From Candidatus Poribacteria bacterium (GTDB lineage: Bacteria; Poribacteria; WGA-4E; WGA-3G), in contig CAXXLX010000001.1 in the NCBI GenBank assembly GCA_963665235.2, positions 2,848,001 through 2,912,000 on the forward strand: DNA of 64,000 nt, in the 5' to 3' direction. The notes beneath the pieces were generated by a model, which worked only from the letters and a program-made list of their open reading frames with translations, was not told the origin of the DNA and searched no databases. Of this stretch, positions 16,488 to 63,565 are shown piece after piece. The position numbers were made by a program, and so were the translations under genes. Within the stretch, counting starts at the first letter, position 1. Each line of letters starts with the position of its first letter.

Positions 16488-17828
16488 ATGAAAATACTCG
16501 TTGTTGACGATGAAAAATTAAAACGCATCACGTTACGCGATGATTTACGCGAATCAAACTACGATGTCATCGCCGTAGAATCCCCGTTAATAGGACTCCA
16601 GCTCTTGCAACAGGAGCCTTTTGATGTCCTTGTAACCGACTTACGGATGCCGCAGATGCACGGGATTGATTTCCTCAAACGGGTTAAAAAGGAACATCCC
16701 CATATCACCGTAATCGTCATGACGGCTTACGCTAGCGTTGAAACCGCTGTTGAGGCACTGAGATTCGGGGCATACAACTACATAAAAAAACCTTTTTCAA
16801 GCGACGAGCTAATACTCATGCTGGATAAACTGAAAGCACTCCGGGGTAAAACACCGGTCGAAAATGCCCAGTCGCCCCTCGTAACACTTGGGACGGACCA
16901 ACAGCCCTCTCTCTACCAAACATTAATTGGCAAAAGCCCACAGATTCAAGAAATTTTTAAATTAATACCAAATGTTGCAGCTGCAGACAGCAATGTGCTC
17001 CTATATGGTGAAGCGGGGACAGGCAAATCGCTCCTTGCAAAAACGATACACCTCGGCAGCTCCCGAAAGCACAAACCTTACGTGAACCTCAATTGTGCCG
17101 GAATGACTACTGAAACGTTGGAAACAGAGCTCTTTGGCAATGAGGCGCGCCAAGGGAAATTGCAACTAGCGAACCACGGCACGCTTTTCATCGCAAATGT
17201 AGACACGATTCCGATGGCACTACAAGCGAAACTGCTAGCGGTACTAGAGGAACAAACGCTTGAGGGGACAACAGAAAACGTGAATTTGCGAATTATTTCA
17301 ACAACGCGCGAAAATCTCAAGGAGAAAACCCAGCGCGGCGAATTTCACGATGAACTCTATTACCTATTGAACGTTATCCCGCTCTTCCTACCGCCGTTAC
17401 GGGAACGGAAAGGCGATATACAGGTGCTTATCAACCATTTTTTAGATATTTTCTCACCGCACCACCCCATCCGAATTGAGCAGGAGGCGGTCAATACGCT
17501 TGTCGCTTATCCGTGGCCGGGGAACGTCAGCGAACTTGAGAATATAATTGAGAGGCTCGTGGCGGTTAGCGATGGGGCAAATATCACGGCTGAGGACATC
17601 CCTATTGAACTTAAGCTTCCAATGCCGCAGCAACTTGACGACATGCTGAGCTTGACCTCGTTCCACGAAATTATTAAGTCCACCGAACGGGAACTTATTG
17701 CATGGGCAATGCGAAAAACAAAAGGGAACAAAACGCAGGCCGCACGGTTGCTCTCAATGAAACCGTCTACCTTTCGCGACGCGCTTGCAAAGCACAGTAA
17801 TATATCGGGTATTCTGAGCGTGCCATGA
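16488..17828 (+). CDS. NtrC-family response regulator with degenerate AAA+ domain
   Basis: Receiver VVDD..DLRMP, GEAGTGKS, WPGNVSELEN, Fis-type HTH; GAFTGA loop missing. Confidence 0.88.
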   Translation: MKILVVDDEKLKRITLRDDLRESNYDVIAVESPLIGLQLLQQEPFDVLVTDLRMPQMHGIDFLKRVKKEHPHITVIVMTAYASVETAVEALRFGAYNYIKKPFSSDELILMLDKLKALRGKTPVENAQSPLVTLGTDQQPSLYQTLIGKSPQIQEIFKLIPNVAAADSNVLLYGEAGTGKSLLAKTIHLGSSRKHKPYVNLNCAGMTTETLETELFGNEARQGKLQLANHGTLFIANVDTIPMALQAKLLAVLEEQTLEGTTENVNLRIISTTRENLKEKTQRGEFHDELYYLLNVIPLFLPPLRERKGDIQVLINHFLDIFSPHHPIRIEQEAVNTLVAYPWPGNVSELENIIERLVAVSDGANITAEDIPIELKLPMPQQLDDMLSLTSFHEIIKSTERELIAWAMRKTKGNKTQAARLLSMKPSTFRDALAKHSNISGILSVP

Positions 17829-17856
17829 ATCAAATCCAGTGGGAAGACTAAAGACA

Positions 17857-18070
17857 GTAAAGATCACCCAGCTAAAGCTTGGGTGCTTTGACAAAGCGTA
17901 GCCACACACGTTCCCTGTCAAGGATTAAGTTCTTCACTACAGTAATATATCGGGTATTCTGAGCGTGGCAGCTCATAAGATGTCTCGGATGCTCCCCAAG
18001 TCCGACCCCTCTCTGAATACCTGATCTGGATGGGGAAACCATATACAACCCGAAAGGGAGATTACAAACT
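17857..18070 (+). ncRNA. omega-RNA scaffold of IsrB copy 1 (guide expected from ~20 nt just upstream)
   Basis: About 210 nt non-coding, conserved in copy 2 with compensatory changes; TCGGA-TGCTCCCCAAG-TCCGA hairpin with loop CCCC complementary to downstream GGGG. Confidence 0.8.
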
Positions 18071-19123
18071 ATGTTTGTTCCGGTTCAAAGCAAGTCTGGC
18101 AAACCCTTAATGCCGACAGATTCTAACAAAGCGGGTGTGCTAATCAAAAAAGGATTGGCAACGCCATATTGGCGTAACGGTATCTTTTGTATTCGGTTAA
18201 ACTACGAGACAAAAGAACACACACAGGAAATCTGTGTGGGCGTGGACCCTGGCTCCAAGAAAGAAGGCTTCACGGTGAAGTCTGAGGCTCACACATATCT
18301 GAATGTGCAAGCGGATGCACATAACAAGGTTGGAAAAAAAGTTAAAAGAAGACGTATATTGAGACGGGGTCGTAGAACCCGGAAGTGTCCAAACCGGAAG
18401 CATCGAACAAATCGAGTAGCGAAGAAAGCACGGCTCCCGGCAGGCACCCGTGCCCGTTGGGATTGGAAACTTCGGATATTAGATTGGTTGTCTAAACTTT
18501 ATCCTGTTACACACGTCTGCGTTGAGGACATCAAAGCACGGACTATTGAACGTGCTAAGAAATGGAACACAGCTTTTAGTCCACTTGAGGTGGGCAAGAC
18601 CTGGTTTTATGGTGAGATAGAAAAGCGGTGGGAGCTGCTAACCCTTCAAGGGTGGCAGACAAAACAGCTGCGTGACAAGCTCGGTTTGAAAAAGTCATCT
18701 CAAAAGTTGGCAGAGACTTTTGAGGCACATTGCGTTGACTCGTGGTGTTTAGCCTACTATACCGTGGGGGGTGATGCGGAAACCGTGGACAATACAGACA
18801 TATTCTGCATTTCACCGATACCCATACGTAGGCGTGAACTGCATCGGCAGAACCCACAAACCGGGGGAAAGAGACCCCGCTATGGGGGGACTGTGCTAAC
18901 GGATACACTTATCAAAAACACACTGATCAAACATGGTAAGCATGGTATCACACGTCCGAGGTCCCACCGAGGACATCCTATTACGGGTATTAATGCAAAA
19001 GGGTTGTTTTCTATCTATAGCTTAGAAGGTGAACGCCTCACAACGGGTGCGAAACGCACAGATTTTCAAGTGCTAACACGCTTGAACTTCAACTATAAAG
19101 GCGGATTTTCCTCCCCCGCATAA
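18071..19123 (+). CDS. isrB: IsrB RNA-guided nickase (PLMP/RRXRR + split RuvC, no HNH)
   Basis: KPLMPT, GVDPG (RuvC-I), Arg-rich bridge helix, VEDIK (RuvC-II), AHCVDS (RuvC-III); 350 aa with no HNH insert. Confidence 0.85.
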   Translation: MFVPVQSKSGKPLMPTDSNKAGVLIKKGLATPYWRNGIFCIRLNYETKEHTQEICVGVDPGSKKEGFTVKSEAHTYLNVQADAHNKVGKKVKRRRILRRGRRTRKCPNRKHRTNRVAKKARLPAGTRARWDWKLRILDWLSKLYPVTHVCVEDIKARTIERAKKWNTAFSPLEVGKTWFYGEIEKRWELLTLQGWQTKQLRDKLGLKKSSQKLAETFEAHCVDSWCLAYYTVGGDAETVDNTDIFCISPIPIRRRELHRQNPQTGGKRPRYGGTVLTDTLIKNTLIKHGKHGITRPRSHRGHPITGINAKGLFSIYSLEGERLTTGAKRTDFQVLTRLNFNYKGGFSSPA

Positions 19124-19153
19124 ATGCTGAGGGTTTCCAATCCGAAGAACTTG

Positions 19154-19759
19154 ATGAATGTGACACCTGAACAGAAACGTGAAGCTATTCGCGCAGAAAC
19201 TTTGCGGCACCGTGAGCAGCTTTCATTCACAGCCCGGACCACACGAAGTAAACAAATTGCCGCGCACGTGACGCAGTGGATACAGCAAACTGAAGAAACC
19301 ACGCTTGAGGCGGTGATGGTTTATCTAAGTATGAAAAGTGAGGTGCAAACCTACGGGCTCATCGACTCACTTTTCACTCTAGGAAAGCGGGTTATTGCCC
19401 CGGAGGTTGACGTGGCGAACCGTCAACTCATACCGCGGCACATCCAGAATCTGGAAACGGACCTAGTCCGCCACCCGTACGGCATGTTGCAACCGAATGC
19501 AACATGCCCCGTTTTTCCAAGCATGCAACTTCAACTTGTGCTTGTCCCCGGTATCGCCTTCGATGTGAACGGGTATCGCCTCGGATACGGCAAGGGGTTT
19601 TATGACCGTTTTCTACCGACATGTCCGAACGCTGTCACAATCGGTCTCGCTTATCAGCTACAACTTGTGGAGGAGACTTATCCGCAACCGTGGGATGTCC
19701 CTGTGCAACATATTTTCACAGAAAATGGACGAATTGCAATTTCTAGCCGCGCCCGATAG
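19154..19759 (+). CDS. 5-formyltetrahydrofolate cyclo-ligase (alternative element-derived start at 19124)
   Basis: KREAIR, YLSMKSEV, LVPGIAFDVNGYRLGYGKGFYDRFL, WDVPV. Confidence 0.92.
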   Translation: MNVTPEQKREAIRAETLRHREQLSFTARTTRSKQIAAHVTQWIQQTEETTLEAVMVYLSMKSEVQTYGLIDSLFTLGKRVIAPEVDVANRQLIPRHIQNLETDLVRHPYGMLQPNATCPVFPSMQLQLVLVPGIAFDVNGYRLGYGKGFYDRFLPTCPNAVTIGLAYQLQLVEETYPQPWDVPVQHIFTENGRIAISSRAR

Positions 19760-19768
19760 CTAAAAACG

Positions 19769-20512
19769 TCAATCTACACCGATAAACGGTTTCAATTTCT
19801 CCAACGTCTTTTCTCCAATACCTTTTACTTCCATCAAGGCATCGACGGAAGAAAAATTGCCGTTTTCTTTACGATACTGGACAATTCGTAGTGCTGTTTT
19901 TGGACCGATGCCTGGAAATTTTTGGAGCTCTTCAACGGTAGCAGTGTTGATATTAAGTACTGCGGGTTTATCTTTAGGCGGTTGTTTCTGCTTTTGTTCA
20001 GCAGTTTCTTGCTTCGTCTCTGTGCTTGGCGATGTTTGAGGCTCTTGGACGGTGGCGGTGTTGGTATTGACCGGTTTTTGTTTCTGTTCGGGCGGTTTTT
20101 TCTGTTCAGCAGTTTCTTGCTTCGTCTCTGTGCTTGGCGATGTTTGAGGCTCTTGGACGGTGGCGGTGTTGGTATTGACCGGTTTCTGTTTCTGTTCGGG
20201 CGGTTTTTTCTGTTTAGCGGTTTCTTGCTTCGTCTCTGTGCTTGGCGATGTTTGAGGCTCTTGGACGGTGGCGGTGTTGGTATTGACCGGTTTCTGTTTC
20301 TGTTCGGGTTGTGCTTGCTTCGGGACTGCAATAAAATCCGGTTTCCCTAGAAATAGGGCGGGGTTAGATCGGCGCACCCCCCAAAATGCTGTTCCAATTA
20401 AAATAAGGGTGAGCAGGAAGGTAACAGCATGCCAATAGTGTTTTTCCACGACACCTTCAATATCGCTATGTGTGTTCTGTTTTGTCACTGCGGTCCTCCT
20501 CAGGATGTCCAA
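19769..20512 (-). CDS. comEA: ComEA-family helix-hairpin-helix DNA-binding protein with tandem-repeat linker
   Basis: TM anchor; LNINTATVEELQKFPGIGPKTA..VKGIGEKTLEKL. Confidence 0.8.
   Translation of the reverse strand: MDILRRTAVTKQNTHSDIEGVVEKHYWHAVTFLLTLILIGTAFWGVRRSNPALFLGKPDFIAVPKQAQPEQKQKPVNTNTATVQEPQTSPSTETKQETAKQKKPPEQKQKPVNTNTATVQEPQTSPSTETKQETAEQKKPPEQKQKPVNTNTATVQEPQTSPSTETKQETAEQKQKQPPKDKPAVLNINTATVEELQKFPGIGPKTALRIVQYRKENGNFSSVDALMEVKGIGEKTLEKLKPFIGVD
19993..20307. repeat. Three near-identical 102-bp (34-aa) tandem repeats within comEA
   Basis: PEQKQKPVNTNTATVQEPQTSPSTETKQETAEQK x3. Confidence 0.9.
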
Positions 20513-24574: not shown

Positions 24575-25864
24575 TTAAAAATGTACAGTAAACGCCACTA
24601 TATGGTTTGCCTCAAGGATAGGTTTATCCGCTATTTGATGGATTAGCGCGTATTCAATAGAGAACGTCCCGTGTGTTATGCCAATTCCGGCGGTAAAACG
24701 GAGGGGTGTTCCCACCCGTTTTATGCCGAGCCGCAGTGCTATAGCGGATTCTTGCGGGATTGCCGCTTTTACCCCCGGTTTACCAAAGGGAATGCGGAAC
24801 TCGGTGCCAATTGCGAAATTAATGCCGCGCTGCCCAATAGCGTGCCACGTATCCGCTGCAAGCAAAATCGCTGATATAGGGTGATATGCAATCCCGATAC
24901 CGAGTTGCAATGGGAGCGGTTCAGCAAAGTCGGCACGCAGAAGATTTTCAAAGAGAATACCTACCTGTAGTGCTTTCGCGTCTTGTACACCGAACCTTAT
25001 CTCGCTTTGAACGCCAATATCCAACTCAAGGCGACTAGTGTTACGCTCAATTGCGGGCTGCTTTTCGTGAACGATATCCCGAATGCGGTCGCCGACCTGC
25101 AACTCATGAACGATTGCCGCTATGAGCTGTTCAGGAAACTGCGGGTCTACGCTGGGCTTGTGCCGTGCCGATAAGTCCAGGGTTGACACCGTTTGTCCCT
25201 GTTGTATATTTTGTGTAACCCATTTTAGCCGCGCACCTCCTGCAAATTCACCGATTCTATGACTGACTCCTAACCGCCAACTTTTTTCACGGTGCAGCGT
25301 CCAATCTGTGATAAGGTCTGTTTCTGAAGTGAACCAGCGGGTGCCCCTATCGTATTCAGCACGGGTAGCAGCGAGTGTAAGGTGCGCGAAGTTAGTAAAT
25401 GCCCCCGTATACCCGACACTAACCCCCCATTTTCCGAATACATGGGAATAGTAGCTTGACAGGTAAGCATCCATATCTACTTCGGCGACGAGCTGTGCAG
25501 TGCCGTGCTTTGGCAGTTGTCCCCACCTGAGATTTTCCACAGCAATATCCGCGGCAATGTTGTGGCTTTGGACGTGCACAAGCGAAGCAGGGTTGCCGAA
25601 TATTCCTGCATCTCGTGCATGTGTTGCAATTCGGGTGCCGCCCATGCTACTAATGCGGAGCAGCTCGTTTGCGCTGCTAGGCAAGGGTGCCTCGACCCCA
25701 AGGAGAAACAGGACCACAAATGCTGCGAAGCGCGGGGATGTCACGCGAAGGACTGAACGAAAAAACATGGTATCAAAATCCCTTTCGGGTGCATCTATTG
25801 CGTTATCAACATCTTTCATGTCGTTGTAAAGTTGCTTGCAGTCAATGTGAGAAATACGCGCCAC
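24575..25864 (-). CDS. Hypothetical, probable outer-membrane beta-barrel protein (start uncertain)
   Basis: SMGG..IFGNPASL N-terminal motif, amphipathic strands, C-terminal Phe. Confidence 0.5.
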   Translation of the reverse strand: MARISHIDCKQLYNDMKDVDNAIDAPERDFDTMFFRSVLRVTSPRFAAFVVLFLLGVEAPLPSSANELLRISSMGGTRIATHARDAGIFGNPASLVHVQSHNIAADIAVENLRWGQLPKHGTAQLVAEVDMDAYLSSYYSHVFGKWGVSVGYTGAFTNFAHLTLAATRAEYDRGTRWFTSETDLITDWTLHREKSWRLGVSHRIGEFAGGARLKWVTQNIQQGQTVSTLDLSARHKPSVDPQFPEQLIAAIVHELQVGDRIRDIVHEKQPAIERNTSRLELDIGVQSEIRFGVQDAKALQVGILFENLLRADFAEPLPLQLGIGIAYHPISAILLAADTWHAIGQRGINFAIGTEFRIPFGKPGVKAAIPQESAIALRLGIKRVGTPLRFTAGIGITHGTFSIEYALIHQIADKPILEANHIVAFTVHF

Positions 25865-25913
25865 TCGTCACAGGTTCACCTACTTGTTCTTACCGTTCCA
25901 ATACGCAGCATGT

Positions 25914-27890
25914 CTAAGGTTCAAGGTCCCATATCAGAATAGTGCCATCATGACTTCCACTAACGATGGTGTTCCCATCTGGACTAAACGCCACACTATT
26001 GACCCGCTCCGTATGTCCTGTGAGTGTTTTGATAAGCTGTCCTGTTGTAGTGTTCCATAGCCGAATAGTTTTGTCCCTACCCCCACTAACGATGGTGTTT
26101 CCATCCGGACTGAACGACACGCTATTGACCCAACTCATATCTCCTGTGAGTTTTCTGATAAGTTGCCCGGTGCTTGTGTGCCATAGATGAATAGTCCTGT
26201 CCAAACCCCCACTAACAAGTATACGACCATCCGGAGTAAAAAAGGACACGCTATTGACATTACCCGTATGTTCATAGAGTGTTCTGATAATTTTTCCTGT
26301 TTTTGTGTTCCATAGCCGAATAGTTTTATCCCTACTTCCACTAACGATAGTGTTTCCATCTGGACTAAACGACACGCTAGTGACCCGCTCCGTATGTTCA
26401 TAGAGTGTTCTGATAAGCTGCCCGGTGTTTGTCTCCCATAGACGAATAGTGCCGTCCCCACCGCCACTAACGATAGTGTTTCCATCTGGACTAAACGACA
26501 CGCTATAGACCCGCTTCGTATGCCCTATGAGTGTTCTGATAAGCTGCCCGGTGTTTGTCTCCCATAGACGAATGTCCGCACTGCCACTAACGATGGTATT
26601 CCCATCTGGACTAAACGACACGGTACTGACCGGATACTTATGTCCTGTAAGCACTCTGATAAGTTGCCTTGTGCTTGTGTTCCATAGGCGAATAGTTCTA
26701 TCCCCATTTCCACTAACAATTGTGTTCCCATCTGGACTAAACGACACGCTATTGACAAAATCCCCATGTCCTATGGGTTTTCTGATAAGTTGCCCTGTCC
26801 TACTGTCCCATAGTCGAATAGTATCGTCCGAACTCCTGCTAACGATGGTGTTACCATCCGGACTAAACGACACACTATAGACCCGCTTCGTATGTCCTGT
26901 GAGTGTTCTGATAAGCTGCCCAGTGTTTTTGTTCCATAGGCGAATAGTTTTGTCATCACTTCCACTAATGATTGTGTTCCCATCTGGACTAAACGACACG
27001 CTATTGACAAAATCCGTATGTCCCGTGAGTGTTCTGATAAGCTGCCCGGTGTTTTTGTTCCATAGATGAATAGTTTTGTCATCACTTCCACTAATGATTG
27101 TGTTCCCATCTGGACTAAACGACACGCTATTGACAAAATCCCCATGTCCCGTGAGTGTTCTGATAAGCTGCCCTGTCCTACTATTCCATAGATGAATAGT
27201 CCCATCATGATTTCCACTAACGACGTTGTTCCCATCCGGACTAAACGACATCCTTTTGACCCGACCTGTATGTTCAGTGAGTGTTCTGATAAGTTGCCCA
27301 GTGTTTGTATTCCATAGACGAATAGTTTTGTCATGACTCCCACTAACTACAGTGTTCCCATCTGGACTAAACGCCACACTATGAACTGTATCCGTATGTC
27401 CGGTAAGTGTTTTGATATTTTTTCCAGTGTTTGTATTCCATAACCGAATAGTATGGTCCCAATTCCCACTAACTATGGTGTTGCCATCTGGACTAAACGA
27501 CACGCTATAGACCCAACCCGTATGTCCTGTGAGTGTTCTGATAAGCTGCCCAGTGTTTGTATTCCATAGACGAATAGTATCGTCATCACTCCCACTAGCA
27601 AGCATGCGACTATCCGGACTAAACGCCACGCTATTGACCACATCCGTATGTCCCGTGAATAGGTTGATTTCTTCCCCTGTCTTTGCATTGTAAATCCAAA
27701 TCCCGATACTACTTCCAACGGCCAGGCGTGTTCCATCTGGTGAAAACTTTATCTCACTTATACGACCTTCACCAAGCCGTGCTTTCGCGCCTTCCGGTAA
27801 GTTCAGTTGTGTGTAGTCTATAGCAAAAGTGTTTGGGGCAACGGTTAGAAGCACGAACAAAATCGTTAGCATAAAGACACTGTTTTTCAT
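25914..27890 (-). CDS. Secreted WD40-repeat protein, paralogue 1
   Basis: Signal peptide, LPEGAKARLG, about 14 repeats GH...V.SVSFSPDGNTIVSG..D.TIRLW. Confidence 0.92.
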   Translation of the reverse strand: MKNSVFMLTILFVLLTVAPNTFAIDYTQLNLPEGAKARLGEGRISEIKFSPDGTRLAVGSSIGIWIYNAKTGEEINLFTGHTDVVNSVAFSPDSRMLASGSDDDTIRLWNTNTGQLIRTLTGHTGWVYSVSFSPDGNTIVSGNWDHTIRLWNTNTGKNIKTLTGHTDTVHSVAFSPDGNTVVSGSHDKTIRLWNTNTGQLIRTLTEHTGRVKRMSFSPDGNNVVSGNHDGTIHLWNSRTGQLIRTLTGHGDFVNSVSFSPDGNTIISGSDDKTIHLWNKNTGQLIRTLTGHTDFVNSVSFSPDGNTIISGSDDKTIRLWNKNTGQLIRTLTGHTKRVYSVSFSPDGNTIVSRSSDDTIRLWDSRTGQLIRKPIGHGDFVNSVSFSPDGNTIVSGNGDRTIRLWNTSTRQLIRVLTGHKYPVSTVSFSPDGNTIVSGSADIRLWETNTGQLIRTLIGHTKRVYSVSFSPDGNTIVSGGGDGTIRLWETNTGQLIRTLYEHTERVTSVSFSPDGNTIVSGSRDKTIRLWNTKTGKIIRTLYEHTGNVNSVSFFTPDGRILVSGGLDRTIHLWHTSTGQLIRKLTGDMSWVNSVSFSPDGNTIVSGGRDKTIRLWNTTTGQLIKTLTGHTERVNSVAFSPDGNTIVSGSHDGTILIWDLEP

Positions 27891-27932
27891 GAGTTTATCT
27901 CCTTCTGTTTCCTGATGCAATACGCAGTACGG

Positions 27933-29789
27933 CTAAGGTTCAAGGTCCCATATCAGAATAGTGCCATCCCCACTTCCGCTAACGACGGTGTTCCCATACG
28001 GACTAAACAACACGGTATAGACCGAACCCGTATGTCCTGTGTGTGTTGTGATAAGCTGTCCAGTGCTAATGTCCCATAGCCGAATAGTTTTGTCATTACT
28101 CCCACTAACGATAGTGTTTCCATCCGGACTAAACGACACGCTAAAAACCCAATCCGTATGTCCAGTAAGTTCTCTGATGAGTTGCCCTGTGCTTGTGTGC
28201 CATAGCCGAATAGTCCTGTCAAAACCCCCACTAACAAGTATACGACCATCCGGAGTAAAAAAAGACACGCTACTGACCATACCCGTATGTCCTGTGAGTG
28301 TTCTGATAAGTTTTCCTGTTGTGGTGTTCCATAGCCGAATAGTTTTGTCATCACTGCCACTGACAAGCATGCGACCATCCGGGCTAAACGACACGCTATT
28401 GACCTCGTCCGTATGTCTTGTGAATGTTCTGATAATTTTTCCAGTATTTGTGTTCCATAACCAAATAGTTTTGTCCGAACTTCCACTAACGATGGTGTTG
28501 CCATCCGGACTAAACGATACACTTTTGACCTCCCCTATATGTCCCGTGATTTTTCTGATAATTTTTCCAGTGTTCGTATTCCACAGTCGGATAGTCCCGT
28601 CCGAACTTCCACTAACGACGGCGTTTCCATCCGGACTAAACGATACACTTCCGGCCGAATACATATTTCCTGTGATTTTTCTAATAAGTTGTCTTGTTGT
28701 GGTGTCCCATAGGCGAATAGTTTTGTCACCACTCGCGCTAACGATTGTATCTCCAGCCGGACTAAACGATACGCTATAGACCCAACTCGTATGTCCTTTG
28801 ATTTTTCTGATAATTTTTCCAGTATTTGGGTCCCGTAGTCGAATAATATTGTCCCAACCCCCGCTAACGATTGTATCTCCATCCGGACTAAACGACACGG
28901 TACGGACCCACCCCATATCTCCTGTGAGTGTTCTGATAATTTTTCCAGTCCTACTGTCCCATAGATGGATAGTCTTATCCTCACTCCCACTAACGACGGT
29001 GTTTCCATCGGGACTAAACGACACGGTACGGACCGAACCGTTATGTCCCGTGAGTGTTTTTATATTTTTTCCAGTATTTGTGTCCCATAGACGAATGGTA
29101 TGGTCCTGGCCCCCACCAACGACGGTGTTTCCATCGGGACTGAACGACACGCTATAGACCCACCCCATATCTCCTTTGATTTTTCTGATGATTTTTCCAG
29201 TATTTGTGTTCCATAGATGGATAGTCTTATCCTCACTCCCACTAACGACGGTGTTTCCATCGGGACTAAATGACACGGTACGGACCGAACCGTTATGTCC
29301 CGTGAGTGTTTTTATATTTTTTCCAGTATTTGTGTCCCATAGCCGAATAGTGTTGTCCCAACTGCCACTAACGATTGTGTTTCCATCGGGACTAAACGAC
29401 ACGCTAGTGACCCAACTCGTATGTCCCGTGAGTGTTTTTATATTTTTTCCAGTATTTGTGTCCCATAGCCGAATAGTCCTGTCAAAACTCCCACTAGCTA
29501 TGGTGTTTCCATCCGGACTAAACGACACGGTATGGACCGCCCCTGTATGTCCTGTAAATAGGTTGAGTTCTTCTCCTGTCTGGACATCATAAATCCAAAC
29601 TCCGATACTAGTACCGACGGCTAACCGCGTTCTGTCTGGTGAAAACTTTATATCAGTTATATAACCTTTACCGAGCCGTGCTTTCGCGCCTTCCGGTAAG
29701 TTCCATTGTGTGTAGTCTATAGCGAAGGCGTTTAGGACGGCCGTTAGAAGCACAAACAGAATCGTTAGGGGCAAAAACATGGTTTTCAT
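27933..29789 (-). CDS. Secreted WD40-repeat protein, paralogue 2
   Basis: Same architecture and identical DGTILIWDLEP end; about 13 repeats. Confidence 0.92.
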   Translation of the reverse strand: MKTMFLPLTILFVLLTAVLNAFAIDYTQWNLPEGAKARLGKGYITDIKFSPDRTRLAVGTSIGVWIYDVQTGEELNLFTGHTGAVHTVSFSPDGNTIASGSFDRTIRLWDTNTGKNIKTLTGHTSWVTSVSFSPDGNTIVSGSWDNTIRLWDTNTGKNIKTLTGHNGSVRTVSFSPDGNTVVSGSEDKTIHLWNTNTGKIIRKIKGDMGWVYSVSFSPDGNTVVGGGQDHTIRLWDTNTGKNIKTLTGHNGSVRTVSFSPDGNTVVSGSEDKTIHLWDSRTGKIIRTLTGDMGWVRTVSFSPDGDTIVSGGWDNIIRLRDPNTGKIIRKIKGHTSWVYSVSFSPAGDTIVSASGDKTIRLWDTTTRQLIRKITGNMYSAGSVSFSPDGNAVVSGSSDGTIRLWNTNTGKIIRKITGHIGEVKSVSFSPDGNTIVSGSSDKTIWLWNTNTGKIIRTFTRHTDEVNSVSFSPDGRMLVSGSDDKTIRLWNTTTGKLIRTLTGHTGMVSSVSFFTPDGRILVSGGFDRTIRLWHTSTGQLIRELTGHTDWVFSVSFSPDGNTIVSGSNDKTIRLWDISTGQLITTHTGHTGSVYTVLFSPYGNTVVSGSGDGTILIWDLEP

Positions 29790-31936: not shown

Positions 31937-32686
31937 CTAACGTTGTTCGGACAACGTTCCCTCTGCGCCGATTAACATCAGCCGCTGTAACAACCACGCC
32001 TTCTCTATAACGTTCACGACCTCCAGTGTGAGCGTAACCGTATAACGTCCCGGTGTTTGCAGAACGGAGGAGACATCAACCTCACCTATAATCGGGACCG
32101 GCGCGCCTGGTTGCACCTCACCGATGGAACGGTCCTGGATGAGCGGTGTACCGTTAATAGCAATAGTCAGAAAAGCGCCTGTACGTGCAGCCTCTTGCAG
32201 AATTTCATATCGCAATACCGGTTTCTCACGAAATAACGCAGTCACGTTTAACTGATAGGTCAAAGTTTGCCTGAAGGTGTTGCCTTGCCAATAGCGGTTC
32301 GGTCTTGAAACAATAGCGTGCCCAATAATCACCTCTATCCGAATGTCTTTTCGTGCTGTTGCGGTGCCATCCGTGACTTCAAGTGTAATCGTATAGGTCC
32401 CCGCGGTTTCGGGTGCAGCATAAATAACGTTGCGTCCATCACCAACGATTTTTCCGCCTGTCGTTCGCCACGTGTAGCCGAGTGCGTTTGTATTTCCGGA
32501 GTAATTCACCGTTGCCGTCACATTTGTGGTATCTCCGATATTGAGCGTTTGCGAGTCGGCACTTAGGGTCGTAACCTCAAGTATTTCGTCATCTAAGCCG
32601 AGAAGGTTTTCCGTATCGCAACCTGCTATCAGGCCTATTGTGAAGAGTAGGCAGAGTATATAAAATTGGAATTTCTTAACTTTCAT
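31937..32686 (-). CDS. Lipoprotein with PKD/Ig-like domain (alternative element-derived start at 32716)
   Basis: MKVKK..lipobox IAGC; YTWRTTGG..APETAGTYTITLEVTDG. Confidence 0.7.
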   Translation of the reverse strand: MKVKKFQFYILCLLFTIGLIAGCDTENLLGLDDEILEVTTLSADSQTLNIGDTTNVTATVNYSGNTNALGYTWRTTGGKIVGDGRNVIYAAPETAGTYTITLEVTDGTATARKDIRIEVIIGHAIVSRPNRYWQGNTFRQTLTYQLNVTALFREKPVLRYEILQEAARTGAFLTIAINGTPLIQDRSIGEVQPGAPVPIIGEVDVSSVLQTPGRYTVTLTLEVVNVIEKAWLLQRLMLIGAEGTLSEQR

Positions 32687-32716
32687 CAAAATCTTCGGAT
32701 TGGAAACCCCCAGCAT

Positions 32717-33745
32717 TTATGCGGGGGAGGAAAATCCGCCTTTATAGTTGAAGTTCAAGCGTGTTAGCACTTGAAAATCCGTGCGTTTTGCCCCCGTTGT
32801 TAATCGGTGTCCATCTTTTGAATAGACAGAGAATAGTCCTTTAGCATTAACACCCGCAAGGCGTGTTAATCCGTATTTGTTGTGCTTTATTAATGTGTTT
32901 TTAACAAGTCCATCGCCTAATAAGGTGCCACCATATCGCGGGCGATTGCCACCTTTCTGCGGATTTTGTCTGTGGAGTTGTCGCCTGCGTATCGGTATCG
33001 GTGAGATACAGAATATATCGGTATTGTCGGGTATCTCTAAACCGCCCACGGTGTGATATGCCAAGCACCAACTATCAACGCAATGTGCCTCAAAGGTTTC
33101 AGCTAACTTCTTTGACGACTTGTTGAGACCCAGACGCTCGCGTATCTCTTTGGTTTCAAACCCTTGTATCGTCAGGAGTTCCCATCGCTTTTCTACCTCT
33201 GAATAGAACCAATGCTTGCCCACTTCCAAAGGACTGAAGGCCTGATTCCACTGCTTTTGATACTGTTTTGTCCGCGCCTTAATATCCTCAACACAGACGT
33301 GTGTAACAGGATAGAGTTTAGACAACCAATCTAATATGCGAAGTTTCCAATCCCATCTTGCACGTGTGCCTGCAGGGATACGCTTCCGGTTCGACAGGTT
33401 GTGCTGCTTCTTTTTTCGATTCGGGCATTTCCGTGTGCGTCTGCTTCTCCGCAACGTCCGACGCTTCTCGATTTTCTTTCCAACCTTGTTGTGAGCGTCT
33501 GCTTGCACATTTAGGTAGGTATGTGCCTCGCTCTTGACGGTAAAGCCTTCCTTCTTACTGCCGGGGTCTACGCCTACGCATATCTGTTGGAAGTATCTAT
33601 CCGAAGGGTCGGCGTTAAGGCGCACACAAAAAACGCCATTCTTCCAAAACGGTGTGGCTTTCTTGTCTCGTATCCACTTCCTTGCCCGCGAAGGCTTTGT
33701 CGGCATCAGTGGATTTTGGTTTTTGTCAACGACAGGAACAAACAT
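32717..33745 (-). CDS. isrB: IsrB RNA-guided nickase, copy 2
   Basis: MFVPV..PLMPTKPSRARK, GVDPG, VEDIK, AHCVDS; no HNH; clear paralogue of 18071..19123. Confidence 0.85.
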   Translation of the reverse strand: MFVPVVDKNQNPLMPTKPSRARKWIRDKKATPFWKNGVFCVRLNADPSDRYFQQICVGVDPGSKKEGFTVKSEAHTYLNVQADAHNKVGKKIEKRRTLRRSRRTRKCPNRKKKQHNLSNRKRIPAGTRARWDWKLRILDWLSKLYPVTHVCVEDIKARTKQYQKQWNQAFSPLEVGKHWFYSEVEKRWELLTIQGFETKEIRERLGLNKSSKKLAETFEAHCVDSWCLAYHTVGGLEIPDNTDIFCISPIPIRRRQLHRQNPQKGGNRPRYGGTLLGDGLVKNTLIKHNKYGLTRLAGVNAKGLFSVYSKDGHRLTTGAKRTDFQVLTRLNFNYKGGFSSPA

Positions 33746-33950
33746 AGTTTGTAATTCTCCGTAGAGTTTGTATTTCCCCATCCAGATCGGTATATCAGCG
33801 TTTACATCGGACTTGGGGAGCATCCGAAACACCTTTGTGCACCACCACAGATATACCGATATATTACTGTAGTGAAGAACTTAATCTTTGACAGGGAACG
33901 TGTGGTTACGCTATGTCAAAGCACCCATGCTTTAGCAGGGTGATCTTTAC
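33746..33950 (-). ncRNA. omega-RNA scaffold of IsrB copy 2
   Basis: Homologous to 17857..18070 with stem-preserving substitutions. Confidence 0.8.
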
Positions 33951-33954
33951 TTTT

Positions 33955-34146
33955 TTATACCATAACTTGAAAAAAGCGGTTAACTTTTTTCTAAATGGAA
34001 ACTGTTAGCAATAGGAAGAGGTCTCTGACGCGCACCAAACCGCGGACTATAATCACAACATCTTGCTAATTGCTAATTGCTAATTGCTAATTGCCAATTT
34101 ATATTATACCATAATTTGAAAAAAGCGGTTAACTCTTTTCTAAATG
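33955..34146. repeat. 43-bp imperfect direct repeat flanking a 106-bp insert with (TTGCTAA)n heptamers
   Basis: 33955-33997 versus 34104-34146, 2 mismatches; heptamers at ~34063-34097. Confidence 0.8.
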
Positions 34147-46338: not shown

Positions 46339-46472
46339 TCTATAAATATATCGTCCCTACGGGACTAAGAGACCGAGCAGAAACGGCTTCTATAAATATA
46401 TCGTCCCTACGGGACTAAGAGGTGTGAGCGGTCTGTGTTTCTATAAACATACCGCCCCTACGAGGCTAAGAG
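46339..46472. repeat. Three 33-bp palindromic direct repeats with 17-18 bp spacers
   Basis: TCTATAAATATATCGTCCCTACGGGACTAAGAG x2 plus one variant. Confidence 0.8.
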
Positions 46473-63265: not shown

Positions 63266-63295
63266 TTCACAGCACAGCCCAAAACGTAAATCCTT

Positions 63296-63463
63296 GTAGG
63301 AGTGTGCTGTGTTTGCGACTCTTCTCTTATGTAGGAGCGAGCTGTGCTCGCGATATTTGTAGGAGCGAGCTGTGCTCGCGATATTTGTAGGAGCGAGCTG
63401 TGCTCGCGATATTTGTAGGAGCGAGGCGCGATATTTGTAGGAGCGAGCTGTGCTCGCGATATT
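63296..63463. repeat. Tandem 28-bp GTAG REP-like units
   Basis: GTAGGAGCGAGCTGTGCTCGCGATATTT x4, one internally deleted copy and one degenerate copy. Confidence 0.85.
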
Positions 63464-63565
63464 AAGGCGCGGGCTTCTCACCCGAATACTAGAGGAACAT
63501 TTATACATCTATCATCTATAAAGTGAATCTATCCAACTAAATGACCCTTTACCTATAAGGAGCCA

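Follow-up and report, generated by a model that had tools for sequence, protein, structure and literature searches.

IsrB elements at host start codons in a Candidatus Poribacteria genome: target motif and selection as the likely cause, with an in-frame restart that is probably a hairpin by-product

Introduction

How does a mobile element come to end exactly at the start codon of a host gene, and what then happens to the translation of that gene? The question is raised by a stretch of 64,000 nucleotides (the window) of a Candidatus Poribacteria genome (assembly GCA_963665235.2, contig CAXXLX010000001.1, hereafter C1; C1:2848001-2912000), in which an element carrying isrB ends directly before the ATG of a gene for 5-formyltetrahydrofolate cyclo-ligase. 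An earlier note on this DNA had proposed that an ATGA target motif brings such elements to start codons and that their end rescues host translation by an in-frame restart. In the present work, the first idea was borne out in this genome and in its relatives, and the second was not found to be a conserved property of the elements. Taken as a whole, our results make it likely that target motif, selection and sense transcription place the elements at starts and that the restart is a matter of hairpin geometry.

IStrons are IS200/IS605-type elements fused to group I introns, and they leave the interrupted host gene functional. In translational coupling, termination and reinitiation take place at overlapping or adjacent stop/start pairs (UAAAUG, AUGA). 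The 2009 HEARO paper of Weinberg and colleagues is said to have reported ATGA or GTGA beside HEARO elements. In the accessible part of Hirano et al. 2022 (PMC9581776), the target-adjacent motif (TAM) of IsrB is given as NTGA, and the genomic siting of IsrB elements is not discussed. For IscB, the accessible part of the preprint by Meers et al. 2023 (10.1101/2023.03.14.532601) describes an omegaRNA bounded by the right end of the element, with a guide that lies outside the element and needs external transcription. The same text reports an orientation bias with the upstream gene, elements that mostly lack tnpA and, for GstIscB, the TAM TTCAT, whose reverse complement is ATGAA.

Results and discussion

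An IsrB element on the true start of the cyclo-ligase gene

The isrB product matches the Pfam family RRXRR (2.8e-30, residues 3-155) and no other Pfam family at E values up to 1e-5, HNH included. Its best solved structure is IsrB 8DMB (6.3e-37; about 130 bits over residues 3-279), IscB structures match over residues 3-117 or 3-167 only, and a PLMP motif lies at residues 12-15 (KPLMPT, 11-16). In the copy alignment, isrB is preceded by a good Shine-Dalgarno sequence (SD) of its own, AGGGAG or AAGGAG. The scaffold upstream of it is matched by Rfam RF02033 (HEARO) from the first base of the element and over model positions 1-211 of 211, weakly and at a relaxed Rfam threshold only (20 bits, E 0.041, gathering score 83). 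A tblastn search of this genome returned 22 full or nearly full isrB copies, plus fragments; many of the local copies show 93-100% protein identity to copy 1. Close isrB relatives in named records all come from Candidatus Poribacteria metagenome-assembled genomes, with one exception labelled 'uncultured bacterium'. By these sequence features, the element is classed as a non-autonomous IS200/IS605-type element with isrB and a putative upstream omegaRNA, and nicking by this IsrB is a prediction.

The boundaries of copy 1 could be read from two sides. By the alignment of the 22 copies, GTAAAGATCACCC or GTCAATAACCCCC marks the 5' boundary and ..GAAGA(N2-5)TG the 3' boundary. Moreover, a DNA contig from the public run X6 joins position 17856 to position 19159, skipping 1302 nt and duplicating nothing. 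This contig is an empty allele, of the kind that the earlier note had suggested looking for, and it confirms both boundaries of copy 1 as well as an insertion without target duplication. At the cyclo-ligase start it reads ATGGG where this genome has ATGAA, so that the target motif, too, is missing where the element is; the site may never have been open to targeting, or the allele may have escaped. Hairpins of an imperfect subterminal type lie at the 5' end (CACCCAGCTAAAGCTTGGGTG) and at the 3' end (CCCCCGCATAAATGCTGAGGG), there are no terminal inverted repeats, and related hairpins with a GC-TAAA-GC loop are found at both ends of all copies. The computed RNA fold of the 3' end of copy 1 was not better than that of shuffled sequences (-16.8 kcal/mol, z -0.56).

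At the 3' junction, the isrB stop is followed by ATG (19124-19126), then by CTG AGG GTT TCC AAT CCG AAG AAC TTG and, from 19154, by the host ATGAAT. The element end ..AACTTG thus adjoins the cyclo-ligase gene as first described, and the ATG with the nine sense codons after it makes up 10 open in-frame codons, exactly 30 nt. The fused open reading frame (ORF) at 19124-19759 has 211 codons for amino acids (10 + 201) in the ORF listing of the window.

A Pfam match that begins at profile position 2 and comparison with other genomes show that the ATG at 19154 is the true cyclo-ligase start. The family is present in 20 of 21 genomes searched, this one counted, and in three relatives the orthologue has the same start, a few bases past the stop of the same sigma-54 regulator gene (73-80% identity to the regulator found directly upstream here). 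Since orthologues start there, just after the regulator, copy 1 separates a natively coupled gene pair and sits directly on a true start. Indeed, the left flank of the element still holds the native TAA of the regulator and the 5-nt native spacer that led to the cyclo-ligase ATG.

Start-codon landing is a general pattern in this genome

ATGA flanks the 3' end of 21 of the 22 full copies and of 13 of 15 further mini-derivatives or solo ends, in agreement with the proposal that ATGA is the target motif. The exception among the full copies (k17, C1:1658347-1659675) has AGGA, 7 nt before the ATG of a 511-codon ORF. Thirteen full copies adjoin the ATG of an ORF of 129-673 codons that is preceded by few in-frame starts or by none. 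In six of these 13 host ORFs a Pfam profile is covered from position 1-3 (cyclo-ligase, MurJ, a BatA-domain protein, a LeuC-type aconitase, ArgJ and a cyclophilin), and seven of the 13 left flanks carry a strong SD 5-9 nt before the junction (duplex -6.8 to -12.1 kcal/mol). Eight of the 15 further ends adjoin an ATG opening 135-453 codons, a count made by ORF length without regard to upstream frames. In the eight mini-derivatives examined (450-650 nt), the scaffold and roughly the final 60 nt are retained and the isrB start is missing; five of them adjoin ORFs of 205-453 codons, and another adjoins an ORF of 135 codons. Eight of the 22 full copies lie at non-start sites, k17 being left out of this count. 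Start-codon landing is therefore the general pattern here, at about 60% of copies.

The same pattern in other Poribacteria

Our main set of relatives comprises 80 loci from other Poribacteria, of which 31 (about 40%) adjoin an ATG or GTG that begins an ORF of 100 codons or more. The start-codon pattern thus holds outside this genome as well. Element end and start could be called in 77 of the 80 loci, and the flank was called ATGA in 45 and GTGA in 27 (72/77); in a large subfamily ending in GAAGA-GTG-ATG, the ATGA 3 nt beyond is probably the true one. An earlier set of 37 loci overlaps with the main set (at least L002/L072, L003/L092, L004/L108 and L007/L098) and was not summed with it; there, a script placed 18 of 37 loci next to an ORF of 100 codons or more, and L031 was so placed by eye only. 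Read by eye, the left flanks of the relatives show complete arrangements of promoter, 5' untranslated region (5'UTR) and SD that end at the element.

At the ATG of two host genes, elements of different subfamilies were seen in more than one lineage: argJ in two genera (k21 on contig C2 of this genome, and L003), and a gene of 743/744 codons for a secreted protein in two species of one genus (L012, L021), where the elements are 72% identical over 1242 nt and the host genes 80%. When the left flanks of k21 and L003 were compared by tblastx, nothing matched. The shared sites may reflect inheritance or repeated insertion.

Two departures from the usual flank were also seen in the relatives. Locus L016 has an AGGA flank like k17, so that the element lies before the SD core of the host, 5 nt (L016) or 7 nt (k17) before the ATG, and a small isrB subfamily (L015, L026, L027) is flanked by ATAA.

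The excess at start codons disappears among sense-oriented, gene-proximal sites

Of the 39,677 ATGA sites in the genome, 5.0% are start-like, and against this background the enrichment is very strong (p 2e-12 for 13/21, 3e-19 for 21/34). When ATGA sites outside coding sequence are taken as the null, 29.6% are start-like and an excess remains (p 2e-3 for 13/21, 1e-4 for 21/34). When the null is restricted to starts and to non-coding sites at most 150 nt from a co-oriented gene, 53.7% are start-like and the excess is gone (p 0.30 for 13/21, 0.22 for 21/34). The enrichment of start codons over other ATGA sites, which the earlier note had put forward as a check, is thus confirmed, and limits of orientation and proximity account for it.

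The nearest upstream ORF has the same orientation as the element in 17 cases and the opposite one in 4 (21 copies scored), and local copies away from start codons also sit among co-oriented ORFs. A replication-strand bias of the insertions was considered too, but contig C1 has a weak, noisy GC skew in which no clear origin or terminus was seen. Since the excess vanishes with sense-oriented, gene-proximal sites, the target motif, taken together with purifying selection and a published bias of orientation, is enough to produce the pattern. Active targeting of start codons is not needed for it, although a residual preference is possible because the gene set is crude. Selection as the cause of the enrichment is our inference.

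In these terms, it is very unlikely that start regions are actively targeted beyond the 4-nt motif, for instance through a longer motif or through exposed single-stranded DNA at promoters and starts. The excess over non-coding ATGA sites would speak for such targeting, as would the AGGA of the SD core used in place of ATGA by k17 and L016, and the fact that ATGAA is the commonest flank (13/21 copies). However, ATGAA is also typical of start codons, no conserved bases were seen in the left flanks in the copy alignment, a good third of the local full copies (8/22) stand elsewhere, and, as said, orientation and gene proximity remove the excess.

The in-frame restart is probably a by-product of the hairpin

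The 3' ends of the local copies form two subfamilies, one of 11 copies reading ..CCCCCGCA-TAA-ATG-CTGGGGG.. and one of 11 copies reading ..CCCCGTGC-TAA-AGC-AACGGGG... Copy 1 belongs with the TAA-ATG form, and so does copy 2 (k08), which as claimed has the same geometry at an unrelated gene, that of a PKD-domain protein: on the minus strand, TAA at 32719-32717, ATG at 32716-32714, the element end ..TTTTG at 32687 and the host ATG at 32686-32684, again with 30-nt spacing. Because their 3' end is shared by descent, copies 1 and 2 are not two independent cases.

The earlier note had seen in this right end an evolved rescue module, in which ribosomes that have finished isrB would start anew at the ATG next to its TAA and pass through 10 in-frame codons, giving an extended, functional host protein and a nearly silent insertion. 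Some observations are in favor of it. A TAA-ATG junction with zero spacing is, as a matter of general knowledge, an ideal context for termination and reinitiation; the frame is open in 11 of 11 local full copies of this subfamily, whose 30-nt stretch comes in three sequence variants; host translation needs another route, the element end being without an SD; and argJ, a single-copy gene, is intact with a copy of the TAA-ATG type at its ATG. Moreover, this subfamily has the highest share of start-codon insertions, 14/21 vs 31/80 elsewhere (Fisher p 0.03), in a comparison that is confounded by genome and insertion age; vs the other local subfamily (7/16), p is 0.2.

Nevertheless, we consider such a module quite unlikely. 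It is missing in 11 of the 22 local copies, and five of these 11, which have TAA-AGC in the same hairpin loop, stand on start codons all the same; two of the five, at a LeuC-type gene (k12) and at a TPR gene (k13), are spaced at 28 nt, 2 nt short of the 30, which puts them out of frame. Among the 31 start-codon insertions in other Poribacteria, an ATG never follows the stop; the gaps there span 23-54 nt and are spread over the three frames (15, 8 and 8 cases), so that the 30-nt stop-free frame is not conserved. Mini-derivatives without the isrB start keep the end and adjoin long ORFs. Besides, 30 nt is the usual distance from loop to element end, also in copies without the ATG, and the ATG itself is the 3' arm of a palindrome, GCAT-AA-ATGC, which extends the stem of the subterminal hairpin. 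Given an ATG after the stop, the probability that it is in frame and open for 10 codons by chance is about 0.2. The TAA-ATG with its 30-nt frame is probably a by-product of the hairpin in one young local subfamily and not a conserved rescue device. A caveat in the earlier note had already allowed for such a by-product, and the palindromic stem fits it.

Host translation behind the element

The element end is without an SD (-0.9 to -4.1 kcal/mol; medians -6.4 native, -3.4 random), and for that reason something other than a normal ribosome-binding site must drive host translation, if any continues.

Coupling might still operate independently of frame. Termination of isrB, which most full copies have 23-59 nt before the host ATG, would then open the hairpin and permit reinitiation or fresh initiation at that ATG, the isrB frame replacing the lost SD; we regard this as possible, without thinking it probable. 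The loop of the terminal hairpin holds the isrB stop in nearly all full copies, mostly 23-31 nt from the host start, and isrB has a good SD of its own where the element end has none. In addition, the host genes of k01, k04, k07 and k10 were already coupled to an upstream gene in their native state, the two lying 5-28 nt apart. However, mini-derivatives without isrB also adjoin intact ORFs, and so do two loci of one relative (L035, L036) in which isrB is truncated 156 nt upstream and the adjoining ORFs of 270 and 349 codons are intact. Furthermore, the gaps reach 53-59 nt in the subfamily L016-L020, and a short distance may simply mirror the compactness of the element. Initiation at the host's own ATG without an SD could be another route.

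Alternatively, there may be no rescue at all: start-codon insertions would lower or silence the host gene and be tolerated where it is dispensable or redundant, the ORFs being intact because the insertions are young. This seems rather unlikely to us, even though a strong native SD is swapped for none, many copies are recent by their protein identity to copy 1, and empty and filled alleles both occur in public runs. Redundancy was indeed met at two hosts. The dnaN gene hit in one relative (L014) stands in a genome with 5 matches to the DnaN N-terminal domain, a tandem neighbour among them, and MurJ has 3 family matches in this genome; dnaN as an essential-gene argument and MurJ as a clean essential-gene case were both rejected on this account. 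On the other side, the frequency of start-codon insertions is what harmless sites would lead one to expect, argJ is intact as a single-copy gene and is hit in two genera, and the gene shared by L012 and L021 is hit in two species with its ORFs intact (743 and 744 codons).

In two metatranscriptome runs of one study, RNA contigs bridge from an upstream flank into the scaffold and from the element 3' end into downstream host sequence (for 639 nt in one case). These contigs are compatible with co-transcription, though DNA may have been carried over. The depth of contigs was rejected as evidence of expression: the scaffold bins have 328-677 in RNA and also 155-495 in DNA, the scaffold being deep in DNA contigs too because it is multi-copy, and depth of this kind gives no ranking among the parts of a gene.

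Proposed explanation and the points against it

Thirteen matches to PF01797 (Y1_Tnp) were found in the genome, 8 of them above 90 bits without internal stops, and none lies inside an isrB element. The TnpA-bearing IS200-like elements that were checked have GCTAAAGC-loop hairpins like those of the isrB elements, but an ATAA flank. Mobilisation of the isrB elements by a TnpA in trans is presumed. In the explanation that we favor, a Y1 TnpA would insert the single-stranded element next to TCAT, which is ATGA in isrB orientation, so that the 3' end in this orientation would always adjoin the 4-nt target (ATGA here, with GTGA also called in relatives). Insertions within genes would be selected against, and copies would persist mainly in sense orientation within transcription units. 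Among the remaining sites, start codons would make up about half, and most surviving copies would come to lie exactly between the SD and the ATG of the host with the ORF intact, because the target motif is a start codon followed by A. The host 5'UTR would be transcribed as omegaRNA guide, and nicking of empty alleles by IsrB would favor retention of the element. As the guide would be the flank upstream of the element, a host promoter would have to transcribe it, which may explain why sense copies in transcription units persist.

Several points weigh against this explanation. The restricted null rests on a crude, ORF-based gene set and on 150-nt cut-offs of our own choosing, and other choices could show a residual preference for starts. 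It also equates the harm done by start-codon and by non-coding insertions, which is surprising for an element whose end is practically without an SD. ORFs are interrupted by four or five local copies, and selection against such insertions is thus incomplete. The RNA contigs may contain DNA and give neither levels nor ends. Finally, the high start-codon share of the TAA-ATG subfamily could be a sign that the restart is of use, subject to the confounding by genome and insertion age noted above.

It can further be imagined that IsrB elements with an ATGA/GTGA target are adapted to start codons: they would take the host promoter, use the SD-bearing 5'UTR as guide and return translation through isrB termination in the hairpin loop, which in most full copies is 23-31 nt away from the ATG. 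We put this forward as a tentative and doubtful idea. If it were true, the elements would be nearly neutral operon inserts and not gene disruptors, and the TAA-ATG subfamily would give host proteins with 10 extra N-terminal residues.

Relation to known systems

The element is an ordinary member of the OMEGA and IS200/IS605 world. Like the IsrB of Desulfovirgula thermocuniculi, as far as it is described in the accessible part of PMC9581776, it has a protein of about 350 residues with PLMP motif and RuvC/RRXRR, no HNH, a putative upstream omegaRNA and an NTGA-type TAM. Unlike it, it is known from sequence, its HEARO match is weak and the similarity of the two proteins amounts to the approximately 130 bits over residues 3-279 given above. 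With the IscB elements of Meers et al. (10.1101/2023.03.14.532601) it shares, on the published text accessible, a putative right-end omegaRNA with a presumed outside guide and need for external transcription, the orientation bias, an ATGAA-type TAM and the usual lack of tnpA; these IscB elements differ in having an HNH domain. In the accessible text of that preprint, landing on host start codons was not met, and 'start codon' occurs once.

In contrast to IStrons, the element sits before an ORF and not inside it, and no intron accompanies it: at the gathering threshold, Rfam gave 0 matches in the window, group I intron included. On this point the earlier note, which spoke of insertions without splicing, is borne out. 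The local TAA-ATG junction resembles translational coupling in its form, as does the native regulator/cyclo-ligase pair (TAA, 5 nt, ATG), but unlike classic coupling pairs, the junction is not conserved in the element family (0/31).

Our literature search, which included a 2026 OMEGA review and a term search of a HEARO-enzyme paper in their accessible parts, found no description of start-codon landing by IsrB or OMEGA elements; the supplementary site tables of Meers et al. and of Altae-Tran et al. could hold the pattern. Start-codon siting gives a concrete picture of the 'transcriptionally active target sites' inferred by Meers et al., and the guides of these omegaRNAs would be host ribosome-binding sites. 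It also raises the question of how argJ, murJ and the leuC-type gene are translated once their SD has been replaced by an SD-less transposon end, with the native SD 1.3 kb away. In practice, gene callers will lengthen such host genes by 10 codons into the element.

Features and surroundings of copies 1 and 2

The coordinates of the features are collected in Table 1.

Table 1. Features of the two IsrB copies, their hosts and related elements (window positions, unless a contig is named)
Feature	Position	Strand	Remarks
Sigma-54-type response regulator, upstream host gene	16488..17828	+	last codons altered by 29-nt insertion
29-nt copy of omegaRNA scaffold sequence	17796..17824	+	directly 5' of internal in-frame ATGA of regulator; identical to 17940-17968
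Left flank, putative omegaRNA guide segment	17836..17856	+	position suggested by published IscB/IsrB architecture (Meers et al.)
Whole IsrB element, copy 1 (k01)	17857..19153	+	1297 nt; boundaries from 22-copy alignment and run X6 contig
Putative omegaRNA scaffold (HEARO-like)	17857..18065	+	begins with hairpin CACCCAGCTAAAGCTTGGGTG (right end, TnpA terms); conserved in 22/22 copies
isrB gene	18071..19123	+	350 aa; TAA stop at 19121-19123
Subterminal hairpin, element 3' end (left end, TnpA terms)	19110..19133	+	isrB TAA in loop, ATG in 3' arm
Ten stop-free codons, MLRVSNPKNL	19124..19153	+	in frame with host ATG; direct reading and ORF list
ATGA, target/TAM	19154..19157	+	host start codon + A; ATGA after 21/22 full copies
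5-formyltetrahydrofolate cyclo-ligase, host gene	19154..19759	+	201 aa; Pfam PF01812 4e-38, profile positions 2-186 of 186
Host gene adjoining copy 2	31940..32686	-	249 aa; signal peptide, PKD domain; unrelated to cyclo-ligase
IsrB element, copy 2 (k08)	32687..33950	-	1264 nt; same TAA-ATG + 30 nt geometry
Mini-derivatives on C1	19462-19938, 337433-337901, 504553-505002, 532866-533432, 680877-681345, 1154421-1154878, 1512440-1513091, 1888074-1888563		
IS200-like elements with ATAA flank	C2:338531-340330; C1:646156-646567; C1:1142329; C1:4266716		one with Y1 tnpA opposite isrB sense

The regulator upstream of copy 1 has itself received a short piece of scaffold. The 29-nt insertion shifts its C-terminus from the native ..AKH-MNQIQWED to ..AKH-SNISGILSVP (relatives end in ..AKHINHIDWEE), the stop following in each case, and it is the sole copy of this 29-mer outside an element. 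It is absent from the contigs of runs X5 and X6, and the X5 contig does carry the element at the cyclo-ligase ATG.

Upstream of copy 2, a 43-nt direct repeat (95% identical) lies at 33955-33997 and 34104-34146, each unit containing a run of T and, after it, TGGTATAA, which resembles an extended -10 element. Of the two units, the proximal one ends at the copy 2 boundary, and the native host gene may thus have had almost no leader.

Downstream of the cyclo-ligase gene, a minus-strand ORF (19769-20512) contains three 108-nt tandem repeats at 19992-20315 that are 93-98% identical; a 336-nt skip in an X6 contig at these repeats suggests that their number varies. A long array of 126-nt tandem repeats (25860-29594, more than 20 units, 60-86% identity) presumably encodes a very repetitive protein. 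Short hairpin-containing repeats resembling repetitive extragenic palindromic (REP) sequences were seen at 63295-63475 and 46339-46472, with 28-nt and approximately 50-nt spacing (families D12 and D15).

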